DNA of 46,872 bases. It comes from Catajapyx aquilonaris. Lineage: Eukaryota. Positions within the stretch are counted from its first letter, which is position 1, and each line of letters begins with the position of its first letter. This document shows positions 5,745-46,872 of the stretch, piece by piece. The notes beneath the pieces were generated by a model. That model worked only from the letters and a program-made list of their open reading frames with translations. It did no database searches and was not told the origin of the DNA. A program made the position numbers and the translations under genes. Location: contig JYFJ02003048.1 of NCBI GenBank assembly GCA_000934665.2, positions 1 to 46,872 of the forward strand, given 5' to 3'.

Positions 5745-6506
5745 CAGCCCACGGACACTACCCCTATCTTCTGGGCTTATGGGTCTGTCAGACAGGCGTT
5801 CCGTTCGCTCGTCGCCCCGCTCGCTTCGCGCGCATGGGTCACACTGGCGAGCGTTGCGCTCCGCTGTGCCCTGGGGGCCTCGTCAGTCGAGGAAATTGGG
5901 GGATTTTGGGAATGACGCAGCGAGGCAGGACCCTCTCGCTGCGTTCTCCTCCAGCGGCTCGTCGGGCTCCGATTGGCCGAGACCCTTTTCCCCCCAGCTG
6001 CCCACCCCAACCACCCCTGCCATCATGACCCACTTGTCCCCCGAGGCGAGGTCGCCTTTCACTTCTCCTGCTAAACCCTACGACCGAGTCAGCGCATGTC
6101 TGACAAGTTTGGGCACAGCGATCGCAGCGACATTTTTCGGGGCGAGCGAACGGAACGCCTGTGTGACAGACCCATTATCAACTGCCGAGGGATTACGCAC
6201 CGGGTGCTCACCTGAGACCGCCACGAGACATTTCCCAGAGCATTTATGTGGCGACCCTACCGGACTAAGGCTAAACTTTATAGGTACGAAGGGGAGGGCT
6301 ACATGCTGGCCCAACATGGCCGCCGGCGGCCATGTTGGGCCCCCCAATGTAGCCCTCCCCTTCGTACCTATTAGCCTTAGTCCGGTAGGGTCGCCACATA
6401 AATGCTCTGGGAAATGTCTCTTGCACTCTCAAGTGAGCACCCGGTGCGTAATCCCTCGGCAGGGGGTGGGTGGGGAGTGACCTAACCTGAGTCTTCTACA
6501 GCCATG
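5745..6506 (+). mobile_element. palindrome-bearing 8-bp-TSD element, copy 1
   Basis: TSD ATGTAGAC (5737-5744, 6507-6514); CAG...ATG ends; palindrome 6182-6462. Confidence 0.88.
5780..6174. mobile_element. PIF/Harbinger-type MITE nested in copy 1
   Basis: TIR TGGGTCTGTCA(G/C)ACAGGCGTTCCGTTCGCTCG; TTA TSD; site is empty in the copy at 37650. Confidence 0.85.
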
Positions 6507-7731
6507 ATGTAGACTGTAGGGTGTGTTGGCATATAAAAATCAAGTAATGTGATTGGGTAAGACATGAACTTGGCAGTCCGTCTCTCAACACAAGAATAAC
6601 AGTGGTGCGTGATAAGTAATGGCTTAATCAAGGAAATGAAGAGTCTGGCAAGAATGCTGCTGCTGCTGCCTGGGGGTGGAGGGTGAAGTGAAGAATTTTT
6701 TCGTTGTTGTAATTATGGTGGCAGCAATGGAAACCCTTCGATTATTGTACCCCCCCNCCCCCCCCCGGGACAGAAAGCTGGCATGCGTGTAACCGTAAAT
6801 AAACGACCGCATGTGTATAGGGCTGGCAGGTTTATTGTGCTGCCCACAAGAAACTCTTTTCCCTTCCTTTTCCAACATCTTAAGGTCCGGATTCAGTTGC
6901 AAACAGTTCCCAGAAAATCCACTAGTAGAATCAAGGGTGGAGGGTTGGGGGAAGGAGACTGGTGAGGGTGGAGTTGGTTTGAGAGAAGCGATGACCCACC
7001 GCCAATAGAAGGAAAGTGTTTCATTACTCTTTCCTTCAACACCCCTATCTAAGTCCCTATCTAAGTACATTAAAAACCTGCGAATAGCTCGTTTTTATGG
7101 TATCTATGACTATTAATCTGATTATCCTTGTTTTCCTATTATCCAGAGACACTCGCGCAGTCATTAGACGGAATAATCGGGTGTATATGGATTTTAAATC
7201 GATTTCCTGTCACCCGCCTTCTCTTATTATTGGCCCCAATTGCATCGATGATTCGTGCCTTTCGTATCGTATCCGTAGTAATTTTTTCATACTTTCTATC
7301 CAGAAAAATTCCACGCATGAGTCGACTCTGGTAAGTGAGGCGTGATTGCTTGATGAAAATTAATGACTTTGTATCGTATCTCCAGTCATCTTTTTACACT
7401 ATGGACCACAAGGCCAGTTTTAAGTCATATGGCTAATTTTAATCTTGCATATCCCTACCACTACCACCACAAGTCACAACACACCTCAACACCCCTGGGC
7501 AATAAGAATGAAACCAAGTTTCCCTTTCCTTTGGACTAAACAGTCTGGGAAAATCTGGGCCTTCAGCAAGAAATTTCTTGCAATTTCTCATGTTTGATCC
7601 CCAGAACATATGGTATTGCTCCATAACAATGGGAAATTTTTTGAAATACTGACTTAATATTTTATATGCATGGAAAAAACTCTCCCAAAATTCTCAAAAC
7701 TTTCCCCAAAAAATCATGATTTGCACTAATT

Positions 7732-8030
7732 TTTTAACAATTATTTCATTTATTTTACCCCATTGGGAGAATCGGTGCTACATTAGGGGGGTGGATACCA
7801 CCATTTCACCTCTCAATTTTTTCTGCAACTTTCACACATGGATGTGGCCAAGGATAGGGAAGGAAGGAAGAGACTGTGGCCTATTATACAGAAGCGACCC
7901 CAGAATTATCCTGCGGGGACCATGGAAAACGACAGAAAACCACGGTCAGGATCGCCGGCTCTGGGTATCAAACCCAGGACCTCCCAATTAGCAGTCAGAC
8001 TCCTCAACCACTACACCAACCTGCTTCGGT
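7732..8030 (-). mobile_element. tRNA-derived SINE, head type B, with structured tail
   Basis: Homologous to the 15865 copy; TSD GAT(T/G)TGCACTAATT (7718-7731, 8031-8044). Confidence 0.85.
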
Positions 8031-8670
8031 GATGTGCACTAATTAAAATGCCAGAACAGTGGCCAACTACTCCCAATACGCAAAAAATAAAATATCATGT
8101 GTTCCAAAGGAGCAGAAAAAGTTCTCTTGGCTCGATGATAATAGAAATATATTGCTCTAGATGGTGATTTCGCCTCCATTACAGAAACAACATGTTCATT
8201 TAAATGAGTTTTGCTATAAACACAAGTGTATGTTAGGGAAGGGGTGCAGGATGATTCACAAAATGCTACCTGTTATTACATGGGTGGATGAAAGAAAAAT
8301 TGTCCTGTGATTATCTTCGTAATGGAATTGAAATGGCCTTAATCAATAATACTGGAATAATTTTGGTGGAAAAGACTCTCAAAAACTCGATTATAAAAGG
8401 AATGCTGGAACTTGAGGAACACCCTGTGTTACCATATTTTAAAATCAATTGGTGGTAATACATTATAATACCGGTATTGGAAAAAAACAAAATTACAATT
8501 TTTAAAGAAATTTTCAGAAATTTGTAATGTCAGTATAGGAAAAACTAGTGTCTTATTTTCACTATGGATATTAAATTAGCAACAACCTTCTCTGATCCAC
8601 GGTGAAACTATTCAAGAAGACAATAATTGACAGCCCTTAATTAAGGAATTACTGAAGGTACGGTACTCAC

Positions 8671-8820
8671 AGTACACTTGTGTGGCTTTTCCCCTGTGTG
8701 GCGTCGCATGTGCACCACCAACATATACTGCGCTTTGAATGGTTTCTCTTCTCTGGAGCACTCTTTCCAGCGACATATAAATGATTTCTTATTGGCATGG
8801 ATATGGTCATTGTTGATATG
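8671..8820 (-). CDS. ci: ci/GLI exon, end of finger 1 and finger 2 (HINNDHI...[24 protein letters not shown])
   Basis: Diagnostic GLI finger sequence; acceptor ttgcag, donor GTGAGT; 50 codons; 101-bp upstream intron. Confidence 0.98.
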
Positions 8821-8921
8821 CTGCAATGCAAGAAATTATTACTACTTAGGGTCTAATGAGTATGATTATGCTTCCATGTGGCCACACTGCCTCTGGTGCA
8901 TGGGAATAATTCAAAACTCAC

Positions 8922-9173
8922 CTTCACCAGCTCCTCCTGAGTATTGAATTCTTGATCACAGTCTTTCCAATGGCAATGAGTCTCAATGAAGTCCCCAGGC
9001 TCGTCTTTCATTGGGTCATGAGATGAATCTCCTTTGTCACCAGAACTGCTTCCTCCACTGGCTCCCAAGGTAGAGCAAACTGGTTCCTTCTTCACCTTGC
9101 TTTGTCGTGCCTCCTCTGAGTCTACTGTGCTCGACACTGCATTTGGCGAGTCCTTGTTACCCAGCAGCTCTCC
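8922..9173 (-). CDS. ci: ci/GLI exon ending in zinc finger 1 (KDEPGDFIETHCHWKDC...ELVK)
   Basis: Acceptor tattcag, donor GTGAGT; 84 codons, phase 0/0; conserved Ci KDEPGDFIET motif. Confidence 0.96.
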
Positions 9174-9354
9174 CTGAATAAAAGAAAATGGCAAGTCTGT
9201 TAATACTGTAGAAAGCAACATTTAATGAATGTTCCAACTGAAATTTCACTCACACCAATTTCAAGGGTGCTCAAGTGCAGCTGCAAAGGTATATAACTAT
9301 ATCAGTAGAAGAGAAAGCCGGGTGAAAATTCATGAATGAATCCAGTGGAATGCA

Positions 9355-9359
<5 letters not shown>

Positions 9360-9397
<38 letters not shown>

Positions 9398-9731
9398 TTT
9401 TTTTCCATTACCCCACGGGGGGAGTCATACTACTCCTTAGGGGGGGTGGGTTGCCACCTTTGGAATTTGTTTTGGAGCGAGTTTAAGAATAATCTTAATT
9501 AGTATGCTCCAAGGGTGGGTGGGAGGGGATGTGCAAAGTGCAAGTGCAATGTCTCTAATCGTCATTTTGTGAACTCCCCCGGGTGGCTTAGTCTGCCGGA
9601 AATTGCCACCCGAAACGAAGCCAGAGATGGCCCAACTCTGCACGAAAGAAGGTGGGAACCCCGGGTGGGGATTGAACCCGGGACCTTAACTTCCGTGGGC
9701 GCGCGCGTTACCGCGGCGCCACTCCGTCTCC
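9360..9731 (-). mobile_element. tRNA-derived SINE, head type C, (TAA)n tail
   Basis: B box GGTTCAATCCC; 18-bp TSD CCAGTGGAATGCAATTAT (9342-9359, 9732-9749). Confidence 0.9.
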
Positions 9732-9930
9732 CCAGTGGAATGCAATTATATGCTATGAGTAAAACTTGCTTATAGCGGAATTGCTTCATACTGCATACAG
9801 TGTACTGAACAGGTTTCTGTTATGATCAACAGAAATGCATTGCAAATGACCAGCCATAAATTATGCTACAGTATATGAACAGGGTCCTTTACAGACAGGC
9901 TTCACTGTCAACTGTAGCCATAAGACTTAA

Positions 9931-10772
9931 GGGGGCACTACAGTCATCGACCTTCAAAAATTCGGTTTTATTTTTTATTTTCGAAAAAAATCAAGCGTCC
10001 TTTCCTGCGTCGAACGCGGCAAACCGCGTCCCGAAATTCAAAAAATTAGCGCGTCGGGAGCGGATGGCTGGCAACGACCTTCGGTTCCCCCTCCTCTCCC
10101 CACCTACCCGCTGGCATGAGCGCCATCGGGTGCTGCTCCCGCGCGGACGCGGAGGCACTATCGGTCCTGCTGTCAACAGCGCGTATGTGTGACACTAACG
10201 TTTTTTTAAAAATCGCATTATCGCTCTGTTACGTTACCCTAGTTTTAACTTTAAACGCGTTTGTCTCAGTTTGCCGGATTTGGACACTGTCGACATCGCC
10301 CAGGCTACAAAAATTTAGCTGAGGACTTCCCACTTCACCAGATTTATCCTCAAACATGTCGCTATCCAGTGGCCTAAAAGATTTAGCCTGCTCGAACTAC
10401 TTCTATTTTAAATTAATTAAATTCTTTCTCAAAACTGAGTTATCTTTCTGAAATCGTCAAGAAAATACTAAAACGATTTCAAAAATTATATTATATTCTA
10501 GGTCAATGGAAAACTACATGCTCAAGGAAGCCTGAGGTCCAATCTGACGGTTGTAGGTTGACTCCAGCGTCCTAAATCGTGTCGACAGTGGCGTGACGTC
10601 ACTCGGCCCGGGAGGCCCTTCGACACACGAACGTGATTCGATTATAGGCGCTAATAGGTCTTTGACTTATGTACATTCATGAAAATCAAGTCCCAACTTC
10701 TTGTCTCTAATAGTTTTTTTGATCAATTTTTTTTTTTACAAAACCCTTGATTTTGACTGTCACAGTGCCCCC
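9931..10772. mobile_element. TTAA-flanked element, Kolobok-like
   Basis: TTAA|GGGGGCACT...AGTGCCCCC|TTAA. Confidence 0.75.
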
Positions 10773-10776
10773 TTAA

Positions 10777-11676
10777 GAGGGCCGGGTCATATCGTTCCCG
10801 CCACTTTTTCTGGCCGCTTCGAGAGCAAATCCGTCGTGCAGACTTATTGTCTGCAACCTGCCCGTATGGGCGCGCTATCACAGATGCGGGCATGCGGTCT
10901 TTTGCCTTGGGCGGCGGATGAACCAGAGCTGCTTCCGGTCCTGCAACGGTTCGAATCAAACAATAATTGATCGATCGGCAACATGAAGTTTGACTGAGTA
11001 TCGGCGTCACAGGGGCTCGGCCGTGGATCCGCATATTTAAATTCTGGCCTTTATCTCTTTGCAAACGCATTTTCGAGCCGATTTAACTGTTTTTGTGGCG
11101 ATTACGTGGGACGAGCTGAGACGCTGTTAGCAGTCCAAGATTACAAAATCTGAAGGGGCCACGCGTGGCAACGTCGCGTCGTATCCGACCCTCTCCCACC
11201 ACCAACTCCCCCACCCGTCCGAAGGTCGGCCAGCAGCCAGCAGCCAGGAAGGGTGGGGGAGTGGGTGGTGGGAGAGGGTCGGATCCGACGCGACGTTGCC
11301 ACGCGTGGTCCCCTTCATATTTGGTAATCTGCTAACAGCGTCTCAGCTCGTCCCACGTCATCGCCACAAAAACAGTTAAATCGGCTGGAAAATGCGTTTG
11401 CAAAGAGATAAAGCCTAGGCGAGAGACTTGTCATTAGCAGTTACTTGTAGCTGCTAGAAAATAGCTACCGTGGTGTGGTTCGCCGTCTGGCCGCCACGAG
11501 GGGAATTCTTGCCTGCCAGGCGTCTCCACTCGCTGGCGGGAGACTATTATTTTACGAATATGACCTCTCGCCCTGGCCTTACCGTTCGTCTCTCAGAAAA
11601 ATTGCTTATACCCTCGGAATCAGGATTTCTTGCCCGATTTTTAGAACACAACTTGTATTTTGAGTGCCGTGTCCCT
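10777..11676. mobile_element. probable second TTAA-flanked element containing a foldback insert (~11047-11413)
   Basis: Imperfect ends GAGGGCCGGG / CCGTGTCCCT between TTAA sites; internal arms of ~165 bp are clearly inverted. Confidence 0.55.
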
Positions 11677-12230: not shown

Positions 12231-12255
12231 TGGGTGCGTGAGTGTGTGTGTTTCT

Positions 12256-16102: not shown

Positions 16103-16672
16103 AGTATCCTCTCCAGACGCACAATGGGCCAAAAGGCAGCTTAGATGTAAACTAAAGTGTTTAAAGTAACAATCATATTAATAGGAAACTAGCAGGATAT
16201 CCGGCGTTGCTCGGGTTATGAAATACTTAGCATAGGAGTAACTCATTGATTTTTCTTTTTAATATTTTTAGATATACCCTGTGCTAGGGCCATGGGCCCT
16301 CTTAGGGGAGTGGATTACCACTCTCATGTGTGTGAGCTGTGTGCCTTTAACCCATAAAATGCTCTGAAGATGGCCTCTCTTTGTTCATATGTTACTTTCT
16401 GATCACAGTGAAACCTGCAGCAATTAATCACATGCTTCTGCAGTTAGGACCGTATTGTTCTGACTGATGGATAGGATCTGTGCAGATGGAACTAAGTTGC
16501 AAAGTAATTTCCACCGTCAATTTTAGAGACATAGGGATAAAATTTCTGGATAATTTAGATCGTTGCATATAAGTAAAACTTCTATATGTCGAATCTCCAT
16601 GGGACAGGAAAAAAACTCGAGTAATAGAAGATTCGAGTTAGGGAAGTTTATTTCATATTATTTTCCATTGTG

Positions 16673-17040
16673 GGGGAGGCGTGGTGGCCGAGATGGTAAC
16701 GTCTCGGCTTGCTGTGCGGAAGGTCTCGGGTTCGATCCCCGCCCGGGAGTTCTCTTCCGCCTGCGTCAGTGGGTCTCTAACCCGCGCCTAAGGAGCCGTT
16801 TTGGCAACCTAGCCTCCTGGGGGACTGCACATGACCCTTTTCAGACATTGCACGTTTGCGCCTGTGTCCCCTCCCCAAAAATCCGAATTCCCCTCCCCAT
16901 TTCCCTTTCTCCACTGCACGGTGTTAGAAGAAAAATTCAGAAGAATTTACATGAAAAATGGGGGTATTCCACCCCCCTAAAGGAGCGCTGATATTCTCCC
17001 AATGGGGTAAGTAAAATAAATTTAAAAATTTAAAAACAAA
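16673..17040 (+). mobile_element. tRNA-derived SINE, head type A variant, inside a pogo/Tigger-like MITE (~16572-17116)
   Basis: 16-bp TSD ATTATTTT(C/A)CATTGTG; host TIR GTAAAACTTCT..GTCGAA / TTCGAC..AGAAGTTTTAC. Confidence 0.85.
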
Positions 17041-18437: not shown

Positions 18438-20407
18438 AAACCATACCATATGCTTGGCATTATTATCGTTCAGTTTACCAAATACACAGCAATGATAAAA
18501 TATTGGCCTTGTTTTGCATATTCCGGCCCAAAAACTGTCTGGCATGTATTACATCAATCAATAAGAGTTCGGGATGTAAAACTGCACTCCATATGATTTC
18601 AAAATGGCAATATGAGAACTGCTACTGGGGGAGACTCCCTAAGTACACTACCGTATTGAAGGAGTTGCAGGGGGCTGTCCTTTGTCAAGCTTCCAGTCCA
18701 TACCCAGTCACGCCCAAGTAAGCAGGACAAAAGTTGTTTGTCATTGTTATCCCCCTCTGATTCCCAATGGCTTGCTGTATGGTGGGCTGGGTTTCAACAG
18801 GCAGCTCAGTCTCGATATTGTTAGCGAGCCATCCCCAATCCAATGGCCTCCAGGCGAGTGTGCCGCCCGCCAGTTCAACTATATATAGAGCGGCATTCTC
18901 TTCGCTCTCTTCTAGAGCTAGATTTTGGCTCCCAGGTTTCCATCTTGGAATTTCATCGGCCTGCAGGAACCAAAATAACGGGACAGCGAGACTTGGAACC
19001 GAGGCTGAAGTGGTGGTGGGATATAACTGCATCAGTTGTCAACACTGGCGGGGGGCGGATGTCATTGCAAAGGCTTCGAGTTGGTGCTGCTCAAGCCTGC
19101 AATCACTGCTCCAGAATGGAAGGTTGACACAACACGATACTTTTGGCGAGTGTTAATTGAACAGAGCGGTTGGGGCTTGACCAGCGCCCTCATTTGAGAG
19201 ACAAGTGCCACCTTATCGCTGACAACGACGGATTGACGTCAGATAGTGCTGGGCAGCAGGACCCATGGATGTCCTCAGGCCGCCTCCAGAATCCTAATTA
19301 GCCCAATAATTCCATTCCTTCTTTTCTTTGCCAATCCCATCAGTGCAATCTTCCTTGCCGCTCTTTCAACAAGTGTTCTAGCAGTATCAGTTAACAGATA
19401 CCAGTAGGGCTCAGGGTATCATGCAAGATTACCATAAGTTTCATTTGGCAGAGGAGAACGTCCACTTGTACTCAGTTTGCCATACACCGGGCACACAATC
19501 ACATAGGCATGATGCATGCCAACTTGGATCACGACATTATAACAGTCGTGTGAATTACTGTGCGGAATCATTTGATTGTCATTTATCGCATATCGATGTG
19601 GCTCAACTATTTGATTGATCGACCCTATTAACATAGCCTATCCCGCGGTATCGTTCCTTTTACAATGCTTTATTCCTTCAATTTGGTCACCTAATTATGA
19701 TTTTGACTGCAGATTGTAACATCCCAGCCCTTGGTGGATTTGGATATGCGCTGGCTGGCTGGCCTATGGTGGGTGCCATTAGATAATACTGTATTGCTAG
19801 AAGAAAACTGAATCTAGCGACCACATTGATATTGGAGAGAAACATGAATTAAGAAAATGAGATGTAGGCTTCTTGACCCCCCTCCCCCCTCCTCCTCCCC
19901 GAGTGCGAGTGGTGCAAATTGGCAAGCCGGGTCCAGGCTCAGTCCTATTCATCTCTCGAAGCAAGAACCACATTCATTTCCTGGTGAAGCCCTCCGCCCT
20001 GAAACTTCTGAGGGGCCCTTTCCCGGTGCGGCGGAACTAACTGGTATGCTCGAGTATGCTTAGCGTGTCCGTTGCGAACCCATTATGCTCGAGCAGAATG
20101 AATTAGGCGCGTCAGGTGAATATCCATCTTCATTCTGCGAGGTCCCAGAGGGTTACGGGCAGGAAGCGGGGAGCGGGGCAAATCTCAGCCGACGACACTA
20201 AAATGGCGGCAACCATCACTACCTGTCCTCGCTACATACACCACACTACCACTCATTAGCAGAGCTTTAACAACTTTAACAACAACAACAACAACTACAG
20301 CTGAACCCATAACATTCTTATTTGCATATACCGTGGGTCCATATTTCCGGGGTTATAACACTAGGCTAAAATAATATCGACGCATATTTTCATATTACAG
20401 TTAAATC

Positions 20408-20640
20408 GGGGGAAGGCACGGTGGCCGAGATGGTAACGTCTCGGCTTGCTATGCGAAAGGTCCCGGGTTCCAATCCCCGCCCGGGAACAAACCTTTCGCT
20501 TGCGTCAATGGGTCGTGACCAGCGCCTGAGGAGGCGTCTTGGCAACCTGGCCTCCTGGGGGACTGCACCTGGCACACCGCTGGACAATGCACCTGCACCT
20601 GTGTCCCCTCCCCAAAAATCCCCTCCCCTTACCCCATTTA
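20408..20640 (+). mobile_element. SINE head type A, 3' truncated
   Basis: Close match to 5179-5410. Confidence 0.85.
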
Positions 20641-21202: not shown

Positions 21203-21323
21203 ATATATATATATATATGATATATATGATATATGATATATATATGATATATGATATATATATATGATATATATATATGATATATATATGATATATATAT
21301 ATGATATATATATATATATATAT
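21203..21323. repeat. (TA)n/(TGATA) microsatellite
   Basis: Direct inspection. Confidence 0.95.
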
Positions 21324-23171
21324 GAGGCATTCCACGTCAAGCGGCACACCTTCCGCTAAATCTTTGAGGACCTTGACCAAAATGTAGTGACGTGTACTAC
21401 TCATCGACCTGTGCAGGAATCCAAATTATTATCCCTCTGCGTTGCGTGGTTGCGTAACTACAGGGTGTCAAATGTGCCAGTTTTTGGACATTTTTGCTAC
21501 GTTCGCTGTGACTTAGATGGCCATAACTCCTAGACGGTCAGGTCAAATATAACATTTGATATGTGCATTCGAAGGGTAATCTTCCACTCTATGAGATGGC
21601 CATACTCAAAATTGAAAAATCCAAAAATATAAAATCAAATATGGCGTCCAAAACATTGATTTTGATATTGATCATGAATCGACCCCTACGATTTCTTTTG
21701 AATGGCACTTAAAATGACAAGGGCAATGTTTATTTTACATTTCCGAAAAATCTGGAGAACCCTTTTTTGATCTTTGCCGACAATAATAACTTTTTTGGTT
21801 CCAAACGCGTCCCGTCAGTGTGGTCACCTCATTTGGAGGACCATAACTAGGAGAAGGTCAGGTCAAATCTTATATTTGATATGCGTATTCGGAAGGTATT
21901 TTTATGCCCCAGGAGATGGTCATACTCAAAATGGAAAAATCCACAAACTTTAAATCAAAGATGACGGCCAATTTTTGATTTTGATTTTGATCAATAATCG
22001 ACCCCTACGATATCTTTTGAATGGGACTCAAAATGATCAGGGTAATGTTTACTTGAGATTTCCGCAAAATCTGGAGAACCCTTTTTTGAAAATTGCAAAT
22101 ATAAAAACATTTTAATGGCGAGACGCATACCGTAAATGTCAATTTACAATAAAATTACTCCAAATTTGTTGAGTTAAATTTTCATGTTGCACGTACTCCA
22201 GGTTCGATGCAGGTACTCCCACGAGCATAAAGATGGAGACGGCAGGCCCTTTTTTGACCTTTCTTTATCCGACTCAAATATTAATGAACTCCTTTTGGAC
22301 CGAGTTGGCTGCTTCATGCGTGTGTTTGTGTATTTATGTCAGTATATTTGATACCGTGATAGCTGAGACTGGCAGAGCAGCCTGCCGAAGGTGAAGGCTT
22401 GCCGTCTCCATCTTTATGCTCGCGGGTGGTACGTACTGCATGTATGATGCAGGTAAGGATAATGCCGGATTCTATCACTCTACATAAATATAATAAATAC
22501 CTATTTCGTCTCAGTTAACTTTGAGACTTACCTTTTTAGTATGTCACTAAAATCGGTATTTATTAATTATTATTACCAAGGTAGAGTGCTAGAATCAGGC
22601 ATTCTCATTATGTGTAGTTTGAATTCTTAACGCAGCAGATTTGGAGTAATTTTATTGATAATTGAGGTGACTACATTTACTCTCGCAACTCTCGCAACTA
22701 AAATGTTTTTATATTTGGGAATTATCAAAATAGGGTTCTCCAGATTTTGCGGAAATCTCAAGTAAACATTACCCTGATCATTTTGAGTCCCATTCAAAAG
22801 ATATCGTAGGGGTCGATTCATGACCAATATCAAAATCAATGTTTTGGACGCCATATTTGATTTTATATTTTTGGATTTTTCAATTTTGAGTATGGCCTTC
22901 TCATAGAGTGGAAGATTACCCTTCGAATGCACATATCAAATGTTATATTTGACCTGACCGTCTAGGAGATACGGCCATCTAAGTCACAGCGAACGTAGCA
23001 AAAATGTCCAAAAACTGGCACATTTGACACCCTGTAGTTACGCAACCACGCAACGCAGAGGGATAATAATTTGGATTCCTGCACAGGTCGATGAGTAGTA
23101 CACGTCACTACATTTTGGTCAAGGTCCTCAAAGATTTAGCGGAAGGTGTGCCGCTTGACGTGGAATGCCTC
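21324..23171. mobile_element. long-TIR foldback element, Sola2-like (GAG...CTC)
   Basis: GAGGCATTCCACGTCAAGCGG termini; arms of several hundred bp; ATAT flanks; small TIR insert at ~22213-22432. Confidence 0.85.
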
Positions 23172-23197
23172 ATATATATACGAGGCATTCCACGTCA

Positions 23198-23779: not shown

Positions 23780-24799
23780 TCAAGCGGACCACCCCCCGAC
23801 AAATCTCGTACGATTTCGACCAAATTCCATAGGTGTGTTGTACTAGTGATTATATGTAAGAATCCCAGATATTGTCTCTCTGTCTCACGTGGAACCTTGC
23901 GAAACTACAGGGTGTGTAAGTTGTGATTTTTCACTCATTTTACGCTGCCAGGGCTTTGAATGGGAACTTCTGAACCCCTCAAGTGAATCCAAATGTGATG
24001 GGTGATTTCGGAACCTCTTTTAACGGCTTTTCATGATATCGCATTGAAAATTTCCGGAAGTAAAAAATTTTGACTTCAAGATGGCGGCGAAACTTTGATT
24101 TTCATATTCCTCAACGTTGGCCATTTTTGAGATTTTTTGAATGGCACTCAAAATGAACCTTGAAATGTGTGCTTCATATTTCCGAAGAGTTTAGGAGGAG
24201 CATTTTGGAATCTCACCCGCTAGAGGGCGAAAATGCAGCCGGCGCGCGTTTTCGACCTGCACGCTGTCAGTTGGAGGACCATAACACCCAGAAGATCGGG
24301 TTAAATATTAAACTTGATATGTGCATTGTAAATGTGTTTTCACGCTCTGTGAGATGGTTATCATCATCCTAATAAAATCAAACAATTTGGATCCAAAATG
24401 GCGGCCTAAATTATGCTTTTTGCATTCATCATTAATCTACCCAAACGATTTGTTTTGAATGGCGTTTGAAATTGTACCGGAAATGTTTACTCGAGATTTC
24501 CGCAAAATCAGGAGCACATATATACGATATATGCCAACCATAAGACATTTTGTGTATGTTAGGCCCTACTGAGAAAGGAGTCGGTTTCACGATTTTTCGA
24601 TAATTTTTATTGTCGTGTAAGAATGATTTTAAAAACTTTTCACGGGGTTATATGATTCATTTGACATTTTCTGATCCAGAAATAATTTTAAAACAGCCAA
24701 TTCAGTAATTGTTTAATTGTTATTATGCCACAATGTCTCAGCTGAGCATTCCAAAACGATTGTGCATAATATATCTCATTGTGGCATAATAACAATTAA

Positions 24800-25270
24800 C
24801 CCTTAACTGCGTAGGTGGGTGAAACACCTTTACTACGTAGGTGGAGCCTGAGAGGCTCCAACGGTATATTTAAATTTCTGCTTAGCAACTAAATTGTTAT
24901 ATTGGACTTTTCACATACAGAAAGTGCAGTTCAGATCATTAGGCTTCCGAAAACGTAAAAATCACACTCTGAGTCAGCATATTCCGACAGGGAAAATTGT
25001 TTAATTAACAGGTTACATCATGTGTTTGAGCAGATCAGGCTTCACCTGAGATATAGAGCCTGAGCGGTTCCAGGAGGGACCTGTTCCTCGTTACGAATTT
25101 TTTAAACCCAAAGAATAGGGACTAAAAAAAAATTTTCTTTCCTTTTCATGCTTAGGAAGGTTTTTCTGACAAAGTCACGGAAGGACAGGGGAAAATAAAA
25201 TTCAATGAAAAAGTTACATGCGTTTAAATAGTGCTTGGCGCCTCTCAGGCTCCACCTACGTAGTTAAGGG
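24800..25270. mobile_element. piggyBac-like MITE
   Basis: TTAA|CCCTTAACT(G/A)CGTAGGTGG...AGTTAAGGG|TTAA; absent from the opposite arm of the host. Confidence 0.88.
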
Positions 25271-27046
25271 TTAAACAATTACTGAATTGGCTGTTTTAAA
25301 ATTATTTCTGGATCAGAAAATGTCAAATGAATCATATAACCCCGTGAAAAGTTTTTAAAATCATTCTTACACGATATTAAAAATTATCGAAAAATCGTGA
25401 AACCGACTCCTTTCTCAGTAGGGCCTAACATGCACAAAATGTCTTATGGTTGGCATATATCGTATTTATGTGCTCCAGATTTTGCGGAAATCTCGAGTAA
25501 ACATTTCCGGTACAATTTCAAACGCCATTCAAAACAAATCGTTTGGGTAGATTAATGATGAATGCGAAAATCATAATTTAGGCCGCCATTTTGGATCCAA
25601 ATTTTTTGATTTTATTAGGATGATGATAACCATATCACAGAGAGTGAAAACACATTTACTATGCACATATCAAGTTTAATATTTAACCCGATCTTCTGGG
25701 TGTTATGGTCCTCCAACTGACAGCGTACATGTCGAAAACGCGCACCGGCTGCATTTTCGCCCTCTAGCGGGTGAGATTCCAAAAAGCTCCTCCTAAACTC
25801 TTGGGAAATATGAAGCACACATTTCACGCTTCATTTTGAGTGCCATTCAAAAAATCTCAAAAATGGCCAACGTTGAGGAATATGAAAATCAAAGTTTCGC
25901 CGCCATCTTGAAGTCAAAATTTTTTACTTCCGGCGATTTTCAATGGCGTATCATGAAAGACCGTTAAAAGAGGTTCCTAAATCACCCATCACATTTGGAT
26001 TCACTTCACGGGTTCAGAAGTTACGGGCCTCCATTCAAAGCCCTGGCAGCGTAAAATGACGCAGAGGATGTCAAATGGTTATATCCGGATTTAACTGTGT
26101 ATGTATGATCTACCTTTCATTCACATTCACACCTCACTCCCCCACCCATCCCCCTTCCCCCACCCTCCAGGGAACTATACCCTCTATCCCTATCCAACTT
26201 ATTGCAGAAAAAAAAGCATAGGCCAGTCCAGCCCCCTGTCACTTTCTCCCCTAGTTGTATGGATACGGTAATTTAATTCCTGTGTCTCCGTCAGGCCCGG
26301 ATTTTGGCGCTGGCGGCGCTACAACGTTCGCTATCCGCCATCTTTTTGAAGGTGCACTCTAGTGGTAAGTCTGCGGAAGGAAAGAATGATCGAGCCAATC
26401 GCGGCAGACTACCCGCCACCGGCTACCTACCACAGGAGTTGCACCTTGAACAAGATGAGGTCTTAGCGAACAATGGGACACAGATATTACACTGCCGAAT
26501 TCGAGGAGTGTCATAGGCAGGTCATTGGGCTGGGCCAGTCTCCCCTTGCACCCTTGCAAGATATCCTCNNNNNNNCCCCCCCCCCCCCGCCGCCCTCCAT
26601 AGCAGCCAATCCCATCACAGAACTCTGAGAAATCGTATTATCTTCATACCGTAATATCGGGGGAGCGGTGGAGCCCCCTGTCGGAGGGAAGGGTACTACC
26701 GTTATGGGTTATTGCCGTTGGTTATTGCACAAATATCGAATAGGTTTACAGCAGTTTGCAATAACAATGATTCAACCCTCTTTTTGGCCATCTCAGCACA
26801 TGCTCCACAACTGCTTTGGCATTGTAGTTTTCATGCTACAGCATCAGGCCTATGACACTCCTCGAATACGGTAGGTTAACACCTGTGTCCTGGCCAGACG
26901 GCGCTGATGGCGGAACATGGCGGATTTCCCTCCAGTGGAGCCTCCATATGGCTGCCGCCATCTTGAAGACTCATTCCGGTTGGCTGGCAAGTCAATCTGC
27001 CTACGGGTGGGTGCCACTAGGCCACAGCCGCTTCCTTCCTTCCCCT

Positions 27047-27465: not shown

Positions 27466-30113
27466 GGGCAATTCCACGTGAAAGTGACCACCTTTTGCAC
27501 GAAAAAATTTGCCCGTCGATGAGTGTGAGATATGTTTGAGTCCATCTCAAGTTATGACCTTTCCCATAAGGATTTGGTCCGCCGATGCGTGGTTGCCTAT
27601 CTACAGGCGCTAATTGCACTTGGATCACAGTTAGAGGCGCCCCCCTATTACATTTACATGACAACGTAAATGAATGATGTAATGCATGTTTCATGTGTGA
27701 AACTGTCTCCTCTTTCCGACAAAAATAGTCACTTTCCGATAGCTGTGCAAATTCATGTCAAAATGCGACATTTTTGCAAACAAATGACATTTTCAAAAAA
27801 AGAGCCAAAGTCAAATGTCATCACATTGATATCAAAATACACCTCACAGTGTCCTCTATCAGTGGTACAAACGGAATTTTGGAATACGAAATGGCTACGG
27901 AGCTATAGGCACTGACGTGGAGCGCTGCGCTAGTGGCCACGCCCGCTGAATGAAAATGAGCGGCCCACCTAGGTCCGTCTTCATGTATGAAGGGGTCTGG
28001 TACGTAATACCGAAAGACATAATACAGACGGAAAAATTTCCGACAGCTTTTTACCGAAAATATACATCCCCGACACCTCCTTAATAACTACACACACTAA
28101 CGTCTCGTTCCCCTTAACACCTTTGAAACCTTTATTACAACATCGCATATACACATCTTGGTCTTATTCATTATACATCTGCAATACCTACTCCCTCTAT
28201 TGTTCGACCCCATTCCCTAATATACTTTTCCCCTTCGCCTCACTTCTTCCTCCTTAAACACATTTCCTTTACATCTTTCCATTGCTTTATTTTCTTTCAC
28301 TCCCTCTTATTCTTATTCACATCTTCGTGTTATATATTTCATCTACTAACAGAGTCATTTCTTCATACCGCCCCAATACATATTTTCTTCCCGGAATCTG
28401 TTTTATCCGGTTGTACTACTTTGTCTTTAAATTTTTATTTCGTAATTCCGTAAATTTCGATATTACTTTCATTAGTTATTTTTCCCTTGTCGGCTTCTTT
28501 TTTTTCAATATTTCTGCTTGATCGGTCATATTTTTATTAGGTTTTTCCCTCCTGTCAGTATTTTCAATTTCGGTATTTTCCTGGTGTCGTTATTTTGACC
28601 TTTCCACTTTTTTCCCGTCGGTATTTTATCCCGTCCATATTACTTCCGTAGGTATTAAACCCGGGACCGGTCTCGGGCAGTGTACGCTTGTCCTTTGTGT
28701 TTAATTCACTTAATATAGTACGAGTATAGTATATATAGTATAGTTAATGTAGTTATAATTTTAATATACCGGGTATCAAGAAATAGTTCCAAATAAATAT
28801 TTGGTCCGCTACTGGGCAATTCCACGTGAACGTGATCACTGATCACCTTTTGCACAAAAAAAATCTGGCCATCGATAAGTGTCAAAGTGTGAGGAGATAT
28901 GTTTAGGTCCATGTTAGAACGTTTCGCATAAGAACTTGGTCCCCTGATGCGTGGTTGCCTCTCTACAGACGTAAATTGTACTTTGATCACATTTACACGA
29001 CAATGTAAATGCTTGATATGATACAAGTTTCATGTGTGAAATTGTCTCCTCCTTTCGACAAAAATGCTAACTTCCTGACAGATGTGCAAATTCATGGCAA
29101 AAAACGAGAATTTTGCAAACAAATGAAATTTTCGAAACGAAAGCCAAAGTTAAATACCATCAGTCATCACATTGATATCAAAAAATTCCCCATAGTGTCC
29201 TCTATCAGCCATATACAAACGGAATTTTGGCATACGCAAGGGTTACGGAGCTATAATCACTGACGTGGAGGGGTGCAGGAGTGCAATATATTCCATTATT
29301 AGTGAAATAGTGTAGGCTATGGAGCCGCAAGGAATTCCGTGCAGGTCTCAACAGTGAACATTCATTTGTCCGGTGACTAGGAACGAATAGAGGAATGAAT
29401 ATAAAAATAAAAAGTAGGCTACATGTTTCTCTACTGTAAATAATCGAGCATATTTTAATACACACTTGACACTTGTAAAAATTGAAACTTTGTTGAACAT
29501 GACAAGGGAATTTTCATTTATTCTTACTATTCTATGGTAATTTTTTTTGAACTATATTATTAAGTGAATTAAACACAAAGGACAAGCGTACACTACCTGA
29601 GACATGCAGACGGACCTAGGTGGGCCGCTCTTTTTCATTCAGCGGGCGTGGCCACTAGCGCAGCGCTCCACGTCAGTACCTATAGCTCCGTAACTATTTC
29701 GTATTCCAAAATTCCGTTTGTACCACTGATAGAGGACACTGTGAGGTGTATTTTGTATCAATGCGATGACATTTGACTTTGGCTCTTTTTTTGAAAATGT
29801 CATTTGTTTGCAAAAATGTCGCATTTTGACATGAATTTGCACAGCTATCGGAAAGTGACTATTTTTGTCGGAAAGAGGAGACAGTTTCACACATGAAACA
29901 TGTATTACATCATGCATTTACGTTGTCATGTAAATGGGTCGCCTCTAACTGTGATCCAAGTGCAATTAGCGCCTGTAGATAGGCAACCACGCATCGGCGG
30001 ACCAAATCCTTATGGGAAAGGTCATAACTTGAGATGGACTCAAACATATCTCACACTCATCGACGGCCAAATTTTTTCGTGCACAAGGTGGTCACGTTCA
30101 CGTGGAATTGCCC
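27466..30113. mobile_element. Sola2-like long-TIR non-autonomous element
   Basis: GGGCAATTCCACGTGAA termini; >500-bp TIRs; 4-bp TSD CTGT (27462-27465, 30114-30117); insert ~27994-28668 in the left arm. Confidence 0.85.
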
Positions 30114-37649: not shown

Positions 37650-38021
37650 CAGCCCCCGGACACTTATACTACATTCTGAGCTTATCGCCTGCCGAGGGGT
37701 TTTGCAGCGGGTGCTCACCTGAGAGCGCCATGAGACATTTCCCGGAGCTATCATGTGGCGACCCTACCGGACTAGGCTGAACTTTATAGTTCCAAAGGGA
37801 AGCGCTACATTGCTGGGGGACCCAACATGGGCGCCGGCGGCCATGTTGGGCCCGCATGTAGCGCTTCCCTTTTGTACCTATAAAGTTCAGCCTAGTCCGG
37901 TAGGGTCGCCCCATAATTGCTCTGGGAAATGTCTCATGGCGCTCTCAGGTGAGCACCCGCTGCAAAACCCCTCGGCAGGGGGTGGGTAGGAGTGACCTAA
38001 CCTGAGTCTTCTAAAACCATG
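37650..38021 (+). mobile_element. palindrome-bearing element, copy 2 (complete, 372 bp)
   Basis: TSD (C/G)TCTCCAC; palindrome ~37689-37978. Confidence 0.88.
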
Positions 38022-39624: not shown

Positions 39625-39625
<1 letters not shown>

Positions 39626-39685: not shown

Positions 39686-39713
39686 GTGATATTTTTGTCG
39701 AAAAAAGGTATTA

Positions 39714-40348: not shown

Positions 40349-40351
40349 TTA

Positions 40352-41116: not shown

Positions 41117-41176
41117 TTAGACATTAGAATACACTGTAGCAGGTGGCGGCCACTTCCCCTTCTTGTGTACACCTTA

Positions 41177-41558
41177 GGCCCCTGCCACACTAGACAATTC
41201 CGTCGCGGTCCGCTCAAAAATGTCAAACACATGGACGTAAACGGGATTCCGTCGGAATGAGACACGCACTACGGATTTTTCGTCCTTCCGTCGAGCACCA
41301 GCCGAAGACACAGCGGAAAAAATCGGCAGCCGATTCCGTCTGGGACAATAATCCCATTGCTATACATTGATTCCGCCGGGGAAAGGCCACACTACCGACG
41401 GAAAAAGCGGGTTCGCTGGCATGGAAACCAGGGGATTGGTAGCTGAAAGGGCAGCAAGACGGCAGCATGGTCGATGGAAATTCCGCGTGAAAAAAGGTGC
41501 AAAATCATTCGGCGACGGAATTTCCGTCAAGGAAATTCTGTCTAGTGTGGCCAGGACC
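41177..41558. mobile_element. PIF/Harbinger-type MITE
   Basis: TTA|GGCCCCTGCCACACTAGACA...TGTCTAGTGTGGCCAGGACC|TTA. Confidence 0.85.
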
Positions 41559-41689
41559 TTAGCTGATCTCCCCCACCGAGAGGGTTTGCCACGCCGCACA
41601 GTAGTCAATATCAGAAAAAACACGAACGAAAATTAGAGCTCCTCAACTAAACCGTTTAAGTACGTAAAAACATGTCTCCCCAAGTTATC

Positions 41690-41980
41690 GGGGTCGCTGA
41701 TTTCGATTTTTAGGTTATTTTGAACGTAGGCCTACAGGGTATACCAAAAAAACACGATCGAATTTAAGAATCATTCTGTCGAATAAGCGGAATGAATAGG
41801 TTTGTGATGCTACCCTACGTTTTGCGGTCACTGCTTCATATTTTGAGGCTCTTATCAAACAAAGACCTACAGGGTGTACCAAAAACATGATAGAATTTAA
41901 TTATCGACAGAATAAGCGGTACAAGTAGGTGAAACTAATGCTTCCCCTGTTTTTACGGTCGCTGATTTACATTTTGAAGC
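41690..41980 (+). repeat. ~130-bp diverged tandem subrepeats
   Basis: GGTC(G/A)CTG.TT..ATTTT and CCTACAGGGT.TACCAAAAA recur. Confidence 0.6.
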
Positions 41981-41996
41981 AACTGTCGACCCAGGC

Positions 41997-42243
41997 CAGC
42001 CCACGGACACTACCCCTATCTTCTGGGCTACATTGGGGGGCCCAACATGGCCGCCGGCGGCCATGTTGGGCCAGCATGTAGCCCTCCCCTTTCGTACCTA
42101 TAAAGTTCAGCCTCAGTCCGGTAGGGTCGCCACATAAATGCTCTGGGAAATGTCTCGTGGCGGTCTCAGGTGAGGACCCACTGCAAAACCCCTCGGCAGG
42201 GGGTGGGTGGGGAGTGACCTAACCTGAGTCTTCTACAACCATG
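41997..42243 (+). mobile_element. palindrome-bearing element, copy 3 (left arm mostly deleted)
   Basis: TSD ACCCAGGC (41989-41996, 42244-42251). Confidence 0.88.
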
Positions 42244-42482
42244 ACCCAGGCCAACAAAATATATCATAAGCACCATAACCATTCCAAAAGTGAGGGTTCC
42301 CACAGCCGCGGTCGCTCGCCCTCGACGGCACCTTCGCCACGTTAATTTCCTTCCAGACCACAAGTTCTTTTGGGATTAATTTATGCCCAAGATCGCATTT
42401 TGTGAAGTGGAATAGCACCGTAATACTTATAGTAACTCAGTGCACAAAGCATATGAAGTGGGCCCTGAAAGTGAATAGGTAA

Positions 42483-43019
42483 AGGGGGGTTCACACTTGC
42501 TGACGGTAGCATACGAAAAGAACGGAACGAAAGAGTGGACCAATCAGAGCCCACTTGAGGATGACGAAAAGTGAAAGGGATTACTAAACGGAAAATACGA
42601 AAGGAATCAACTTCTCACGGACACGGAATACGGAAGCTTACGGACCTATCCACCAATGGAAGAGCCAGGAAAGCGGCAGGGGTGTGGCGACAGAAAGTGA
42701 AAGGGAAAGTGGGGGCAGCGACGCGACGGCAGCGCCTCTGGCGGGGGCAGGACGAAGGACATCAGTCGTGACTCTGGACCCAGGGGGAGCGGGGCTCGGG
42801 AGATGGGAGAAGAGAAGGGTATGATACCGGTCCGAAGGGAGGGAGAGCCCCAGGGAGAGTCCTGCCAGAGAGTTCAAGCACAGCGCATGCGCTGCGGGAT
42901 CCGGAGACTAAGCCAAGCCCCTCGCTTTTGTGTCTGAACACCTAGCCCCTAGTTCCGTTCGTTTCGTCATACCGTTCCGTTCGTTTCGTATGCTACAGTC
43001 AGCTAGTGTGAACCCGCCT
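42483..43019. mobile_element. PIF/Harbinger-type MITE
   Basis: TAA|AGG.GGGTTCACACT.GCTGAC.GTAGCATACGAAA...|TAA. Confidence 0.85.
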
Positions 43020-43574
43020 TAAGGGGCCCAAATTTCGTCACCCTTACGTTGTCTTCTTCTTGTTAGAAAATGGCTGAACGCAGCAATGTATAAGGAAAGT
43101 GAATGTTAATACACTGAACATGTACCTACTACGTCCCGCAATGAAATTTTTTAACAACGTTTAGGAAAAAGCACAGAATTGAAAAAGTGAAAACATCATT
43201 CAGTTTCTGCGTTTTAATGGGAGGAAATGCGTAAAAAAACATTTCTAAATTTGTGAATGCTTTAAAATGCTCGATTAATAACAATACAATGAAAACTGGT
43301 TTATCTGCACGATGAAAATGAAAGCTTTTCCCTATTTTCAAAATAATTAAAATTATGCCGTTGAATAATGAATGACTTGATCAATACAAGCATACGAGAA
43401 CGTTTTAACAGCAGGTAGTACAGATGCGCACAAACATTAATCCTTTAATGCAAATTTTCAGGGTGTGGAAATGTCAAGAAATTTAGCGCCGATCTGGGCA
43501 TGCTGGCATGGGCTGGGTTGGGTTGGGCCTCGTCACTTGTACCCTCTAGCGGGCAACATGAATACTTGGATATA

Positions 43575-43898
43575 CAGGGTGTTTCAACTTTTTTGCCCGA
43601 ACAGTTATCGGAAAATTGCACGTAGCTGCTACTTTGTAAGCAGTGACTTGCAACCGGTGATTTGTCGGAGGAATGGGGAAAAGGGGGTCGCACATCCCAT
43701 GGCATGTGTGACCCTCTTTTTTCCAAGCTTGACCCTCAATTTTCAGCGGGGAGCACGTATGCCACTTCAACCTACGATTCGCAGGGAATATTCCCCGTTC
43801 CTCTGAAAAATCACCGTTTGCAAGTCACTGCTTACAAAGTAGCAGCTACGTGCAATTTTCCGACAAAAATTGTTCGGACAAAAAGTTGAAACACCCTG
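43575..43898. mobile_element. Tc1/mariner-type MITE
   Basis: TA|CAGGGTGTTTCAACTTTTT...|TA with ~85-bp TIRs. Confidence 0.88.
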
Positions 43899-44124
43899 TA
43901 TGTGCGTGCAAGTTGCCTCCCTCCCACATTTCCTCATTTGCGGCGGGCCTAACTTTCAAAAGATCAATACAAAGGCGAAAAGTGAATTAGATGTTCCAAA
44001 AATTAACACCTTCGATTTATTTTTAATGGCGTAATGCCCACGTTAAGTTTTAATTGCTACAAAATTATCAAGGCTCGGCAAGACGCGGAATTTCCATGCC
44101 TTGCTTTATGATCATACTGGAGTA

Positions 44125-44259
44125 CAGTGGTGGAAATTAATGGAGAAGCACAAGTATCGCCGCCTAGCGGAGTTTTTCCTTTACATGAAGCTGCTTCTTG
44201 TAAAGGAAAAGCTCCGCCAGGCGGCGATACTTGTGCTTCTCCATTAATTTCCACCATTG
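44125..44259. mobile_element. 135-bp hairpin MITE, TA-flanked
   Basis: Near-perfect palindrome CA(G/A)TGGTGGAAATTAATGGAGAAGCACAAGTATCGCCGCC with a 1-nt centre. Confidence 0.85.
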
Positions 44260-44483
44260 TACCTTGTGTCAAATGCATGACATATGACAACTCTACTCTC
44301 CGAGCTTCTAGCCCGCAAATACGAGGCTCGTTCCGAAAATAAGCTTCCCTTCGCGATTATTTCCGAAAGTATTGTACATGAGGGTAAATTTTTTATCGTC
44401 AGCAGTTAGAGGACATTATTCTGCATGTGTGAGACAATTTGCTCTCCCTCGTGCACTCCGTGCATGGGCAGGAGGAAGCGTAA

Positions 44484-45192
44484 AGGTGCGTTCACATATA
44501 CGCGACTAAACACTTGCGAGGAATTTTCAGGTTTTGCTTTTTCGCGTCTTTTACGTCACGGAAAAATTTCCGGGCATTCGCGTATCCGCTACGCGATCAA
44601 ACTTACTCGTTAGTTATGGAGCATGCGCTGTGCAGCAGAGCAGGTAGAAGGGAGGATGTGGTCGGGGTCATGTGGGCAGGAGGAGGTCTTGGGCTGACAA
44701 AGATGGCGGAGGCCTGTGCTGCGGAGGCAGCCGGCATGGCAGTGAAAATGCTGCTGAACCCAAGGAACAGTGAATAGGCCGTAGGCTGAACCGACCTCGG
44801 AAGGGCGTCCAGCTCACATTGCACCAAGTGGGGCAAAAGCTGGACATCAGACATGGTGCGGAGGCTGGCCGGGTCGGGAGTTTGCGACAAAAAAAAATGT
44901 TACTTCCGAGCTCGGGCATCCGCATTCCTAACATGGCCGAGGAAGGCCGACAAGTCCGCGTGGCGGCGCTGGGTGGCTCGAACTAGCTCCAAAATTCGCT
45001 CGCGTCAAAAATTCGCTTCTATCTGGCTCTGACAGAGGAGCGCGATTTTTAGTTTAGTCGCGTGAGTGACCAAAATTTGCTCGCGTCTAGGAGAAAATCG
45101 CCGATACGTGAATGCCTTCGGCCAGACGCGAATTCGCTGAAAGCTGAAATTCGCTCGCTTTTGATCAAAATCGCGTATATGTGAACGAACCT
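44484..45192. mobile_element. PIF/Harbinger-type MITE, probably inside a decayed mariner derivative starting ~44322
   Basis: TAA|AGGT.CGTTCACATATACGCGA...|TAA; upstream TA|CGAGGCTCGTTCCGAAAATAAG resembles a mariner TIR. Confidence 0.8.
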
Positions 45193-45920
45193 TAAGAAAG
45201 CGACTTTCGCGCCGAGCGTTCCCACTCCATAAGCGCTTGAGTCAAAGAGCGTGGACGAAAGATGAAGTGCTGACGGTTATCGGAGAGTTCCACGTCATCT
45301 TCCAGACAACTGTGACCGGTAGGCATGTAAATCCATGTCTTGCCGAGCCTTATAAATATCGCGTTGGGTTGTTGGGAGTAGGTGGGATTTGCCTTTTACA
45401 GTTGGATCCACGATATCTGACACATCCAGATTATGTTTTCTGTATAGATATGTCCCATTCGGGGAACAGATTTTGCACAGCCATTTCAGTACAGATTTCT
45501 GGCCAATGCATTCACAAACCAAACGATACCTCTACTTCAGCGTTCTTTGAAGACAGTTGGTCCTTGTCGCACCCCCTATACCAGGGTGATTGATTAAGTT
45601 CATAGTTAGACTAAGTCCAGTGGTGCACCTTGCTCGCACCCCCAGGGGAGCCACCTCGCACCCCAGGTTAAGAATCGCTGCTCTAACCTAAAGTGATCCA
45701 CTGTGCCCAGGAGTTCATTAGAGAAGTTTGTCGGACTCATTATGAAACACTCTGCATAGCAATGCAATGGCGTGACATCCATTACATCACATTCAACTTT
45801 CAAATGTGATGTGGTTCCCACTGCAATAAAATGGTATGCTAGCTGTCATGTACGAGAAAGATATCTTCCTTGGCAATTCCGAGAAAACCCTTGTAGCATG
45901 CTGGATGGTGTGCTAGTCCA

Positions 45921-45974
45921 GAGGAGGAGGAGGAGGAGGGGGAGGAGGAGGAGGAGGAGGAGGAGGAGGAGGAG
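45921..45974. repeat. (GAG)n microsatellite
   Basis: Direct inspection. Confidence 0.95.
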
Positions 45975-46671
45975 GCTCCAGGCTGCTGCATAATATTACA
46001 CTTGGTTTCCTGCGGCACTGCTGAATGGGCCTTTTGTTTGTTTGGAGACAGCGCTCCGGTTGAAAGCCGTGATGAAGCAGAGATGGGGGGGAGAGAGGGA
46101 GAGAGGGAGAGAGGGAGAGAGGGAGAGGGAGAGAGCCATATTGGCAGGGGAATGCGCTTCTGCTGCTCTCTGCCAGCACCAGCCAACCTCCTCCTCATCC
46201 ATCCCCCCTTAAAGCATGGAAGCTCTCTTCTCCTCTTTCCTTGCTGCTGCCTGCCGGTTCCCTCCAATTCACTCCAGCTGTCACAACTACCGTACCCCTC
46301 ACACAAGGCCTTGGTGTGACTCCATGTCACCCATATCACCGGAAGGAGTGTAGCCTACTGCCAACACTCGATGTATTGGATTACAGTTCTCACCACAATA
46401 CCCACCTTTCGCCTTTGAATTGCACAACATCAGGTTAGAAGCTCAATTTTACACCAAAATTATTGTGCTTATAAAGTTCGCAGTGCACGTCGACGAACAG
46501 ACCAAGATACAGCTACGTTGCTTACAGTAGGCTACATTATGTCAATGCAAGCATGTCTATTGCAAACACTGACTACTATCTCAGGACAGGCCACTCCCCA
46601 TCTTATCGCGTTGGGAGGGAAACGAGGTCATGCACTCCGGAACCACTGGCGGCGCCCAGCAGGGTCCAGAC

Positions 46672-46872
46672 CACGGCCATAGAAGATAAGGTCTGGTCAC
46701 TCCCCACCCACCCCCTGCCGAGGGATTACGCACCGGGTGCTCACTTGAGAGCGCCACGAGACATTTCCCAGAGCTATCATGTGGCGACCCTACCGGACTA
46801 AGGCTGAACTTCACATGTACGAAGGGGAGGGCTACATTGGGGGGCCCAACATGGCCGCCGGCGGCCATGTTG
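46672..46872 (-). mobile_element. palindrome-bearing element, copy 4 (cut by window end)
   Basis: Reverse-oriented right end and one arm up to the palindrome centre; flank GTCCAGAC. Confidence 0.85.

Follow-up and report, generated by a model that had tools for sequence, protein, structure and literature searches.

Results

Copies of a palindromic element in the window

The window analyzed here is the whole of contig JYFJ02003048.1 of Catajapyx aquilonaris (46,872 nucleotides), one of the 20,583 contigs that make up a 286-Mb assembly (GCA_000934665.2), and its DNA is repeat-rich and eukaryotic. Four copies of a short transposable element are found in the window, and the center of this element occurs in two orientations relative to its ends. 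Every copy follows the same plan: a unique left (L) end of about 40 bp that begins with CAG, two inverted arms that meet at GCC|GGC with no spacer, and a unique right (R) end of about 45 bp, the last bases of which are CATG or CGTG. The arms are mismatched at a bubble 15–22 bp off the center, of G-type in one arm and C-type in the other, and the isomers are named here after the side of the C-type bubble. The positions of the copies and their parts are as follows.

5745–6506, + strand: copy 1, entire element, G-left/C-right isomer with a nested insert inside
5737–5744, + strand: left 8-bp target-site duplication of copy 1, the same as 6507–6514
6507–6514, + strand: right target-site duplication of copy 1, the same as 5737–5744
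5745–5779, + strand: unique L end of copy 1 before the nested insert; the L end continues at 6175–6181
5780–6174, strand not applicable: nested 395-bp insert of copy 1, with 33-bp terminal inverted repeats and TTA flanks
6182–6324, + strand: left arm of copy 1, with the G-type bubble at 6305–6309
6325–6462, + strand: right arm of copy 1, with the C-type bubble at 6340–6346
6463–6506, + strand: unique R end of copy 1, terminating in CATG
37650–38021, + strand: copy 2, complete 372-bp element, C-left isomer (L end 37650–37687, arms 37688–37835 and 37836–37979, R end 37980–38021)
41997–42243, + strand: copy 3, 247-bp deletion derivative, the C-left bubble of which almost abuts the L end
41989–41996 and 42244–42251: exact 8-bp duplication of copy 3
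46672–46872, − strand: copy 4, ending at the contig edge (R end 46672–46714, right arm with the C-type bubble 46715–46859, 13 left-arm bases)
46664–46671: target half-site of copy 4

The palindrome centers of copies 1–4 lie at 6324|6325, 37835|37836, 42055|42056, and 46859|46860, respectively. The arms are 143 and 138 bp long in copy 1 and about 148 and 144 bp in copy 2, whose predicted fold is a single long hairpin (−175.8 kcal/mol; z = −29.7 relative to 100 shuffled sequences). Copy 1 is G-left/C-right, copies 2 and 3 are C-left/G-right, and copy 4, where the contig stops 13 bases beyond the center, is C-right. Nearly the whole left arm is gone from copy 3. The 8-bp duplications flanking the complete window copies are exact for copies 1 and 3 and match at 7 of 8 positions for copy 2. 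The first-pass annotation of the window had described four copies with unlike ends around a spacerless palindrome whose bubble points in opposite ways. The positions, the ends, the GCC|GGC center in all four copies, and the bubble directions are all confirmed on re-examination; the target duplications and the nested insert had been overlooked. Copy 1 is not a longer and fuller form of the element, since its extra length is the 395-bp insert, which is a miniature inverted-repeat transposable element (MITE) separate from its host. The TTA duplication is the character by which we take the insert to be PIF/Harbinger-like.

Copies in the genome and their target sites

Exact matches in the genome numbered 183 for a 22-base L-end pattern and 410 for a 26-base R-end pattern, and the copies studied were drawn from part of the first 100 matches to each. 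A script found 166 R ends at the sampled loci, 145 of them paired with an L end; removal of L001 (window copy 3) and of one mis-paired nested copy left 143 copies for analysis. Window copy 2 is outside this set, having been missed by the patterns of the script. The element is about 373 bp long (mostly 359–388 bp), non-coding, present in many copies, and fairly uniform in length, as is characteristic of MITEs.

An 8-bp target duplication flanks the L–R copies, exactly in 99 of 143 and with at most one mismatch in 125. The symmetrized consensus of the 99 exact target sites is identical to the 14-bp target motif reported for the P element of Drosophila (PMC2577343), and an A or T stands three bases beyond the duplication in 92/99 and 89/99 sites. 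The termini are CAGC in 94 and CATG or CGTG in 97 of the 99 copies. The L and R ends have only CA…TG in common (the first 2 bases), and the terminal inverted repeats of 13–31 bp found in canonical P elements are absent; the element is not a canonical P element. In an older group of copies, a subterminal motif is common to both ends, at position 9 of L and position 25 of R, and it is a candidate binding site of a THAP domain.

Membership in the hAT superfamily was considered and rejected. The 8-bp duplication fits it, but the element has no terminal repeats and its cognate gene is of P-type, though no search aimed at hAT genes was made. The targets of hobo and Hermes likewise read GT…AC (PMC2577343; for this and all other sources cited, we draw on part of the text). 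A search of the genome for the KDZ transposase (PF18758) gave 0 candidates, and the control searches gave nothing either.

Several unusual copies should be noted. L149 and L151, and L116 by its length, are copies of about 1.2 kb; L149 and L151 have one insertion in common, at a single site in the C-type arm, and an interrupted copy may have been amplified. L090 (G000:C1275, locus 976–1222) is a diverged sibling of 247 bp; both its ends are R-like, its central hairpin is different, and its 8-bp duplication is perfect. That an L plus an R end is always required is not established: the L–L and R–R forms of the family are without duplications of their own, yet L090 has a perfect one. At L032, L091, and L153, a copy has inserted into an L or R end of the element itself, at an 8-mer resembling the target; in L153, an R-core-R unit comes after an L stub of 12 bases. 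At L239, 903–1282 and 7046–7368 are L–L fold-backs whose symmetry runs about 110 bp into the flank, and the pair surrounds another P-family derivative.

Orientation of the center on the tree of ends

Bubble typing of the 143 copies gave 86 C-left, 41 C-right, 4 with the C-type and 2 with the G-type on both sides, and 10 that were uncallable. Where both bubbles were called and the flanks match (96 copies), the C-left:C-right ratio is 66:30, and it is 45:27 among the 72 copies that remain when loci gathered by similarity to the C-left query, copy 3, are left out. All seven R-end groups hold both orientations (chi-square p 0.69, with one unclassified copy included), and in five groups the orientations are at about 50:50.

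A tree was built from end sequences only, with 81 columns and 87 of the 96 copies. Orientation changes 19 times on this tree, compared with 19.1 times for shuffled labels. Grouping the C-right copies in a single clade is rejected (p-AU 1.2e-35), at least five changes are forced, and four sets of copies with identical ends contain both orientations. These results rule out a single ancient inversion, and the core has been inverted repeatedly. The first-pass annotation had proposed an invertible core and this very comparison with a tree of the non-palindromic ends as its check, and the proposal stands.

The part of the element that turns

Markers along the arms show how far the inversion reaches. 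In C-right copies, 57 of 58 calls at informative sites 4–49 bp off the center follow the bubble (15 copies), whereas 11 of 12 calls at sites 97–138 bp out remain with the ends. Only the center turns; the distal arm and the tips keep their place. A hairpin inverting as a unit would move the distal markers as well, and their being left behind shows that this is not what happens. The similarity of the two arms within a copy, relative to that between copies, is higher at 50–147 bp from the center and lower at 0–50 bp. Strictly private alleles are found in both arms in 5 of 70 cases, and in 0 of 11 cases at 25 bp or less from the center, and the homogenized tracts vary from copy to copy. One arm has been copied from the other. 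Such a gradient is the pattern expected of a double template switch, or of a crossover with conversion, between the arms. Of the two routes to flip and flop isomers named in the first-pass annotation, recombination between inverted repeats agrees with the gradient; a parvovirus-like hairpin intermediate does not, and is further at odds with the cut-and-paste target signature and cognate gene, both of P-type.

Two further arm markers that the annotation had taken to swap sides are not evidence of a swap. The first is a common allele that is present in both arms in 23 of the 32 oriented copies carrying it, and in copy 3 the left arm needed for the comparison is missing. The second is found, among C-left copies, on the left (1), on the right (1), and on both sides (2).

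The share of C-right copies is higher where the arms are more alike. It is 15/27 in copies with identical runs longer than 50 bases versus 12/45 in the others (Fisher p 0.023), and 18/35 in the five groups with near-identical arms versus 9/36 in groups with diverged arms (p 0.029).

Transposase-bearing relatives

A search for the P-type RNase H domain gave 87 matches, and 60 larger stretches around matches were examined (20, then 40). None of the first 20 loci has the element ends as its own, and two held chance MITE insertions. Among the next 40, L231 and L239 hold nested copies, and L218 carries an element end of its own: an L end like that of the MITE and some 115 bp of arm, broken up by insertions, stand directly upstream of the transposase domains THAP (PF05485, E 1.9e-6), P RNase H N (PF21787, 1.9e-32), and RNase H C (PF21789, 1.2e-5). 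L251, found through the 5′ region of L218, is 80–92% identical to L218 and about 4.5 kb long, with a 125-bp arm at both ends; its R end is there as well, along with the greater part of the L end. Both L218 and L251 are broken.

The MITE arms beyond about 28 bp from the center align with the arms of L218 and L251, whereas nothing in six transposase-bearing loci matches the central 56 bp (the best local score was 25). The palindrome is thus composed of two long subterminal inverted repeats joined around a small hairpin. The interiors derived from transposase genes are non-palindromic, and they too are found both ways round (4 versus 3). The L end lies beside the 5′ side of the transposase in L218, L253, L254, and L257, and beside the 3′ side in L251, L259, and L260; L255 was left out of this count, its interior itself being a fold-back.

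Other P-type transposons were met at these loci. A second P-transposase family is represented by L134 (1769–8915, + strand) and L135 (− strand, 5.4 kb). The two copies agree in their ends, CAG… and …CTGTG, which are not inverted repeats. Both are flanked by exact 8-bp duplications, and a subterminal motif stands near each end, in direct orientation relative to its counterpart. A possible third case, with weaker evidence, is L138.

Discussion

Nature of the element and course of the inversion

It is fairly likely, on the observations above, that the element is a non-autonomous transposon (a MITE) of the P superfamily whose interior is inverted through the homology of its arms. Judging from the target signature and the cognate gene, a THAP/P transposase would cut and paste L–R units and leave the 8-bp duplications. 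The MITE would have kept the tips and arms, and the gene would have been replaced by the imperfect hairpin of about 56 bp, as a result of which the element resembles one spacerless palindrome. The inversion could then proceed by host repair with the other arm as template: a resynthesized strand would quit one arm, switch to the other, copy the interior from there in reverse, and return. A crossover with conversion between the arms could give the same inversion. The outcome in either case would be an inverted center, a ring of homogenized arm sequence, and an unmoved outer arm and tips. The isomers are visible because the tips differ.

Such copying would probably take place when the gap that P excision opens is mended, or when the extruded hairpin breaks and is repaired. 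Repair of gaps after P excision readily slips or switches template (PMC4168063), and is on that ground a likely occasion. The inversion most likely comes from ordinary DNA repair and not from a special virus-like copying, and the mechanism is probably ordinary recombination. The phenomenon itself is real and well marked; the element is a variant within the P superfamily, and the cause of the inversion is probably ordinary. Every group retains the central mismatch, as would be seen if perfect palindromes were lost from either the genome or the assembly.

A stronger proposal would build the inversion into the transposition cycle. The interior would be turned about one in three to one in two times per excision and gap repair, the full-length transposase gene too would have two isomers relative to the non-equivalent ends, and the arms and central mismatch would be selected in a P lineage without terminal repeats. 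We consider this proposal possible but doubtful.

Several observations weigh against inversion through the arms of a P-type element. The end tree has no branch with a support of 95 or more, and no flip has been seen at one single locus. Assembly error is the chief reservation: the excess of C-right copies at long identical runs fits a dependence on homology but also mis-assembly, which would mimic the gradient, and such error is likely to have inflated the C-right count in part. The coupling of the inversion to gap repair is something that we infer. As to the cognate gene, the loci examined did not include an intact autonomous element complete with L end, R end, and target duplication. No R end was found for L218 within its contig. 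L251 is without the last 11 or so bases of L, no duplication was found within 6.7 kb beyond, and its longest frame (527 amino acids) matches no Pfam family. None of the three loci with L next to the 3′ side (L251, L259, and L260) has both ends intact, and the L end of L260 is degraded.

Alternative explanations

Exchange between copies survives best among the alternatives, and is unlikely as the source of the isomers. In this explanation, a broken copy would be repaired from another copy aligned either way, or an inverted insertion into the end of another copy would be resolved through the arms. Exchange between copies also happens, as is seen in the L–L and R–R forms with unmatched flanks (L120 and L143), in the L239 fold-back into the flank, and in the insertions into the element's own ends at L032, L091, and L153; one distal allele, moreover, stands on either side without a swap of the bubble, and chimeric copies with unmatched flanks are known for Galileo (PMC3573991). 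However, 125 of the 143 L–R copies have kept matching flanks, which means that crossovers between loci are rare, and the private alleles shared by both arms (5/70), together with both-arm variants specific to a copy or group, need copying from arm to arm within one element.

An assembly artefact, in which a short-read assembler traverses the palindrome either way and merges the arms, is quite improbable as the explanation of both isomers. Contigs do break within the palindrome (window copy 4, L180, and L185), and the ratio is near 50:50 where the arms are near-identical, in contrast to the groups with diverged arms. Four contig sets of one sample were compared with L187, and none among the pieces listed ran across the palindrome center. 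Nevertheless, C-right is found in 8 of 29 copies in which the longest identical arm-to-arm run is shorter than 31 bases. Deletion copies with one arm have either state next to a unique end (C-left in window copy 3, C-right in L200), and L218 and L259, both single-armed, have opposite interiors. The bubble is kept as a mismatch or as a single type in 121 of 127 typed copies, and the same type is on both sides in only 6. Assembly error cannot account for the diverged-arm or one-armed copies.

The terminal hairpin of parvoviruses is imperfect and occurs in two inverted-complement forms, with a Rep nick at a fixed site and inversion of the entire hairpin. Replication of this kind, in which a single-stranded hairpin would be nicked and extended to give flip and flop in each round, is very improbable for the present element. 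It would suit the very stable hairpin, the central mismatch retained in all groups, and the ratio of about 50:50 in five of them. Yet the palindrome here is internal, flanked by two unique tips, and its inversion is partial (11/12 distal calls unflipped), with scattered conversion tracts that differ among copies; the viral hairpin is terminal and inverts whole. The P-type transposase indicated by the target signature and the cognate gene also speaks against it, though no search aimed at an HUH/Rep gene was made.

A single ancient inversion that founded two subfamilies is hardly tenable: some C-right copies are related (L036, L116, and L210 share arm variants) and the isomer count is to that extent inherited, but the rejected C-right clade, the forced changes, and the identical ends in both states refute it unless ends reshuffle between copies faster than they mutate.

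Comparison with known systems

BuT5 of the Drosophila repleta group is a P-family MITE of about 1 kb, with 3-bp terminal repeats, imperfect subterminal repeats of 16–17 bp placed nearly symmetrically (32 and 30 bp), 8–9-bp duplications, and ends shared with an autonomous P element (PMC3698922). The present element is like it in being a P-family MITE with minimal terminal repeats, duplications of the 8-bp class, and ends shared with transposase-bearing P elements, here broken ones. It differs in the subterminal motif, which is offset by 16 bp, in the arms of 115–150 bp, and in the interior found in both orientations; the part of the BuT5 report drawn on mentions no such inversion.

Galileo, also of the P superfamily, has long inverted repeats that draw recombination and conversion, has recruited internal sequence into these repeats, and forms chimeras with unmatched flanks; its duplications are 7 bp in most species (PMC3573991, PMC4168063). 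The long inverted repeats, the recombination and conversion, the recruitment of internal sequence, and the chimeric copies are shared with the element described here. The repeats of Galileo, however, are terminal and alike at both ends, where an interior flip would equal a turn of the whole element, whereas unlike tips stand outside the arms in the present case.

The D. melanogaster P element has 31-bp perfect terminal repeats, 11-bp internal repeats, an 8-bp duplication, a 14-bp target motif, transposase sites spaced 9 versus 21 bp from the ends, and THAP and RNase H domains (PMC7776569, PMC2577343). The duplication size, target motif, and THAP/RNase H domains are alike, and the motif positions 9 and 25 recall the 9/21-bp spacing; the P element is without long arms. 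In plastids, a segment between inverted repeats occurs in two orientations by homologous recombination, and loops of 5–50 bp flip between stems of 11–24 bp (PMC12928735). This concerns one locus of an organelle genome, not a dispersed transposon. Kyakuja has CA..TG termini and no terminal repeats, and Zisupton has 8-bp duplications (PMC12730594); the cognate gene of the present element, in contrast, is P-type.

The literature on palindromes inside transposons, on P elements that lack terminal repeats, and on inverted interiors gave no account of interior isomers of a transposon; our coverage of it was partial, with Repbase outside it. The P-family design with unlike tips outside long inverted arms makes the interior inversion visible; identical ends would hide it. 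With its hundreds of independent, marked hairpins, this one genome provides a natural data set on how repair inverts and homogenizes palindromes in relation to the distance from the center and the identity of the arms.

Other features of the element center and the window

Two conserved inverted motifs are present at 6312–6337 of the window and in the center of every copy. They resemble what we take to be a YY1/Pho site, and a similar motif is also found in the 5′ region of the L138 P element.

Other big inverted-repeat elements lie at 23965–26022, 21315–23180, and 27466–30113 of the window, with arms of 150–750 bp and 95–98% complementarity. A dispersed repeat occurs three times in the window (5159–5398, 16651–16837, and 20388–20627) and is a tRNA-derived short interspersed element by appearance only.

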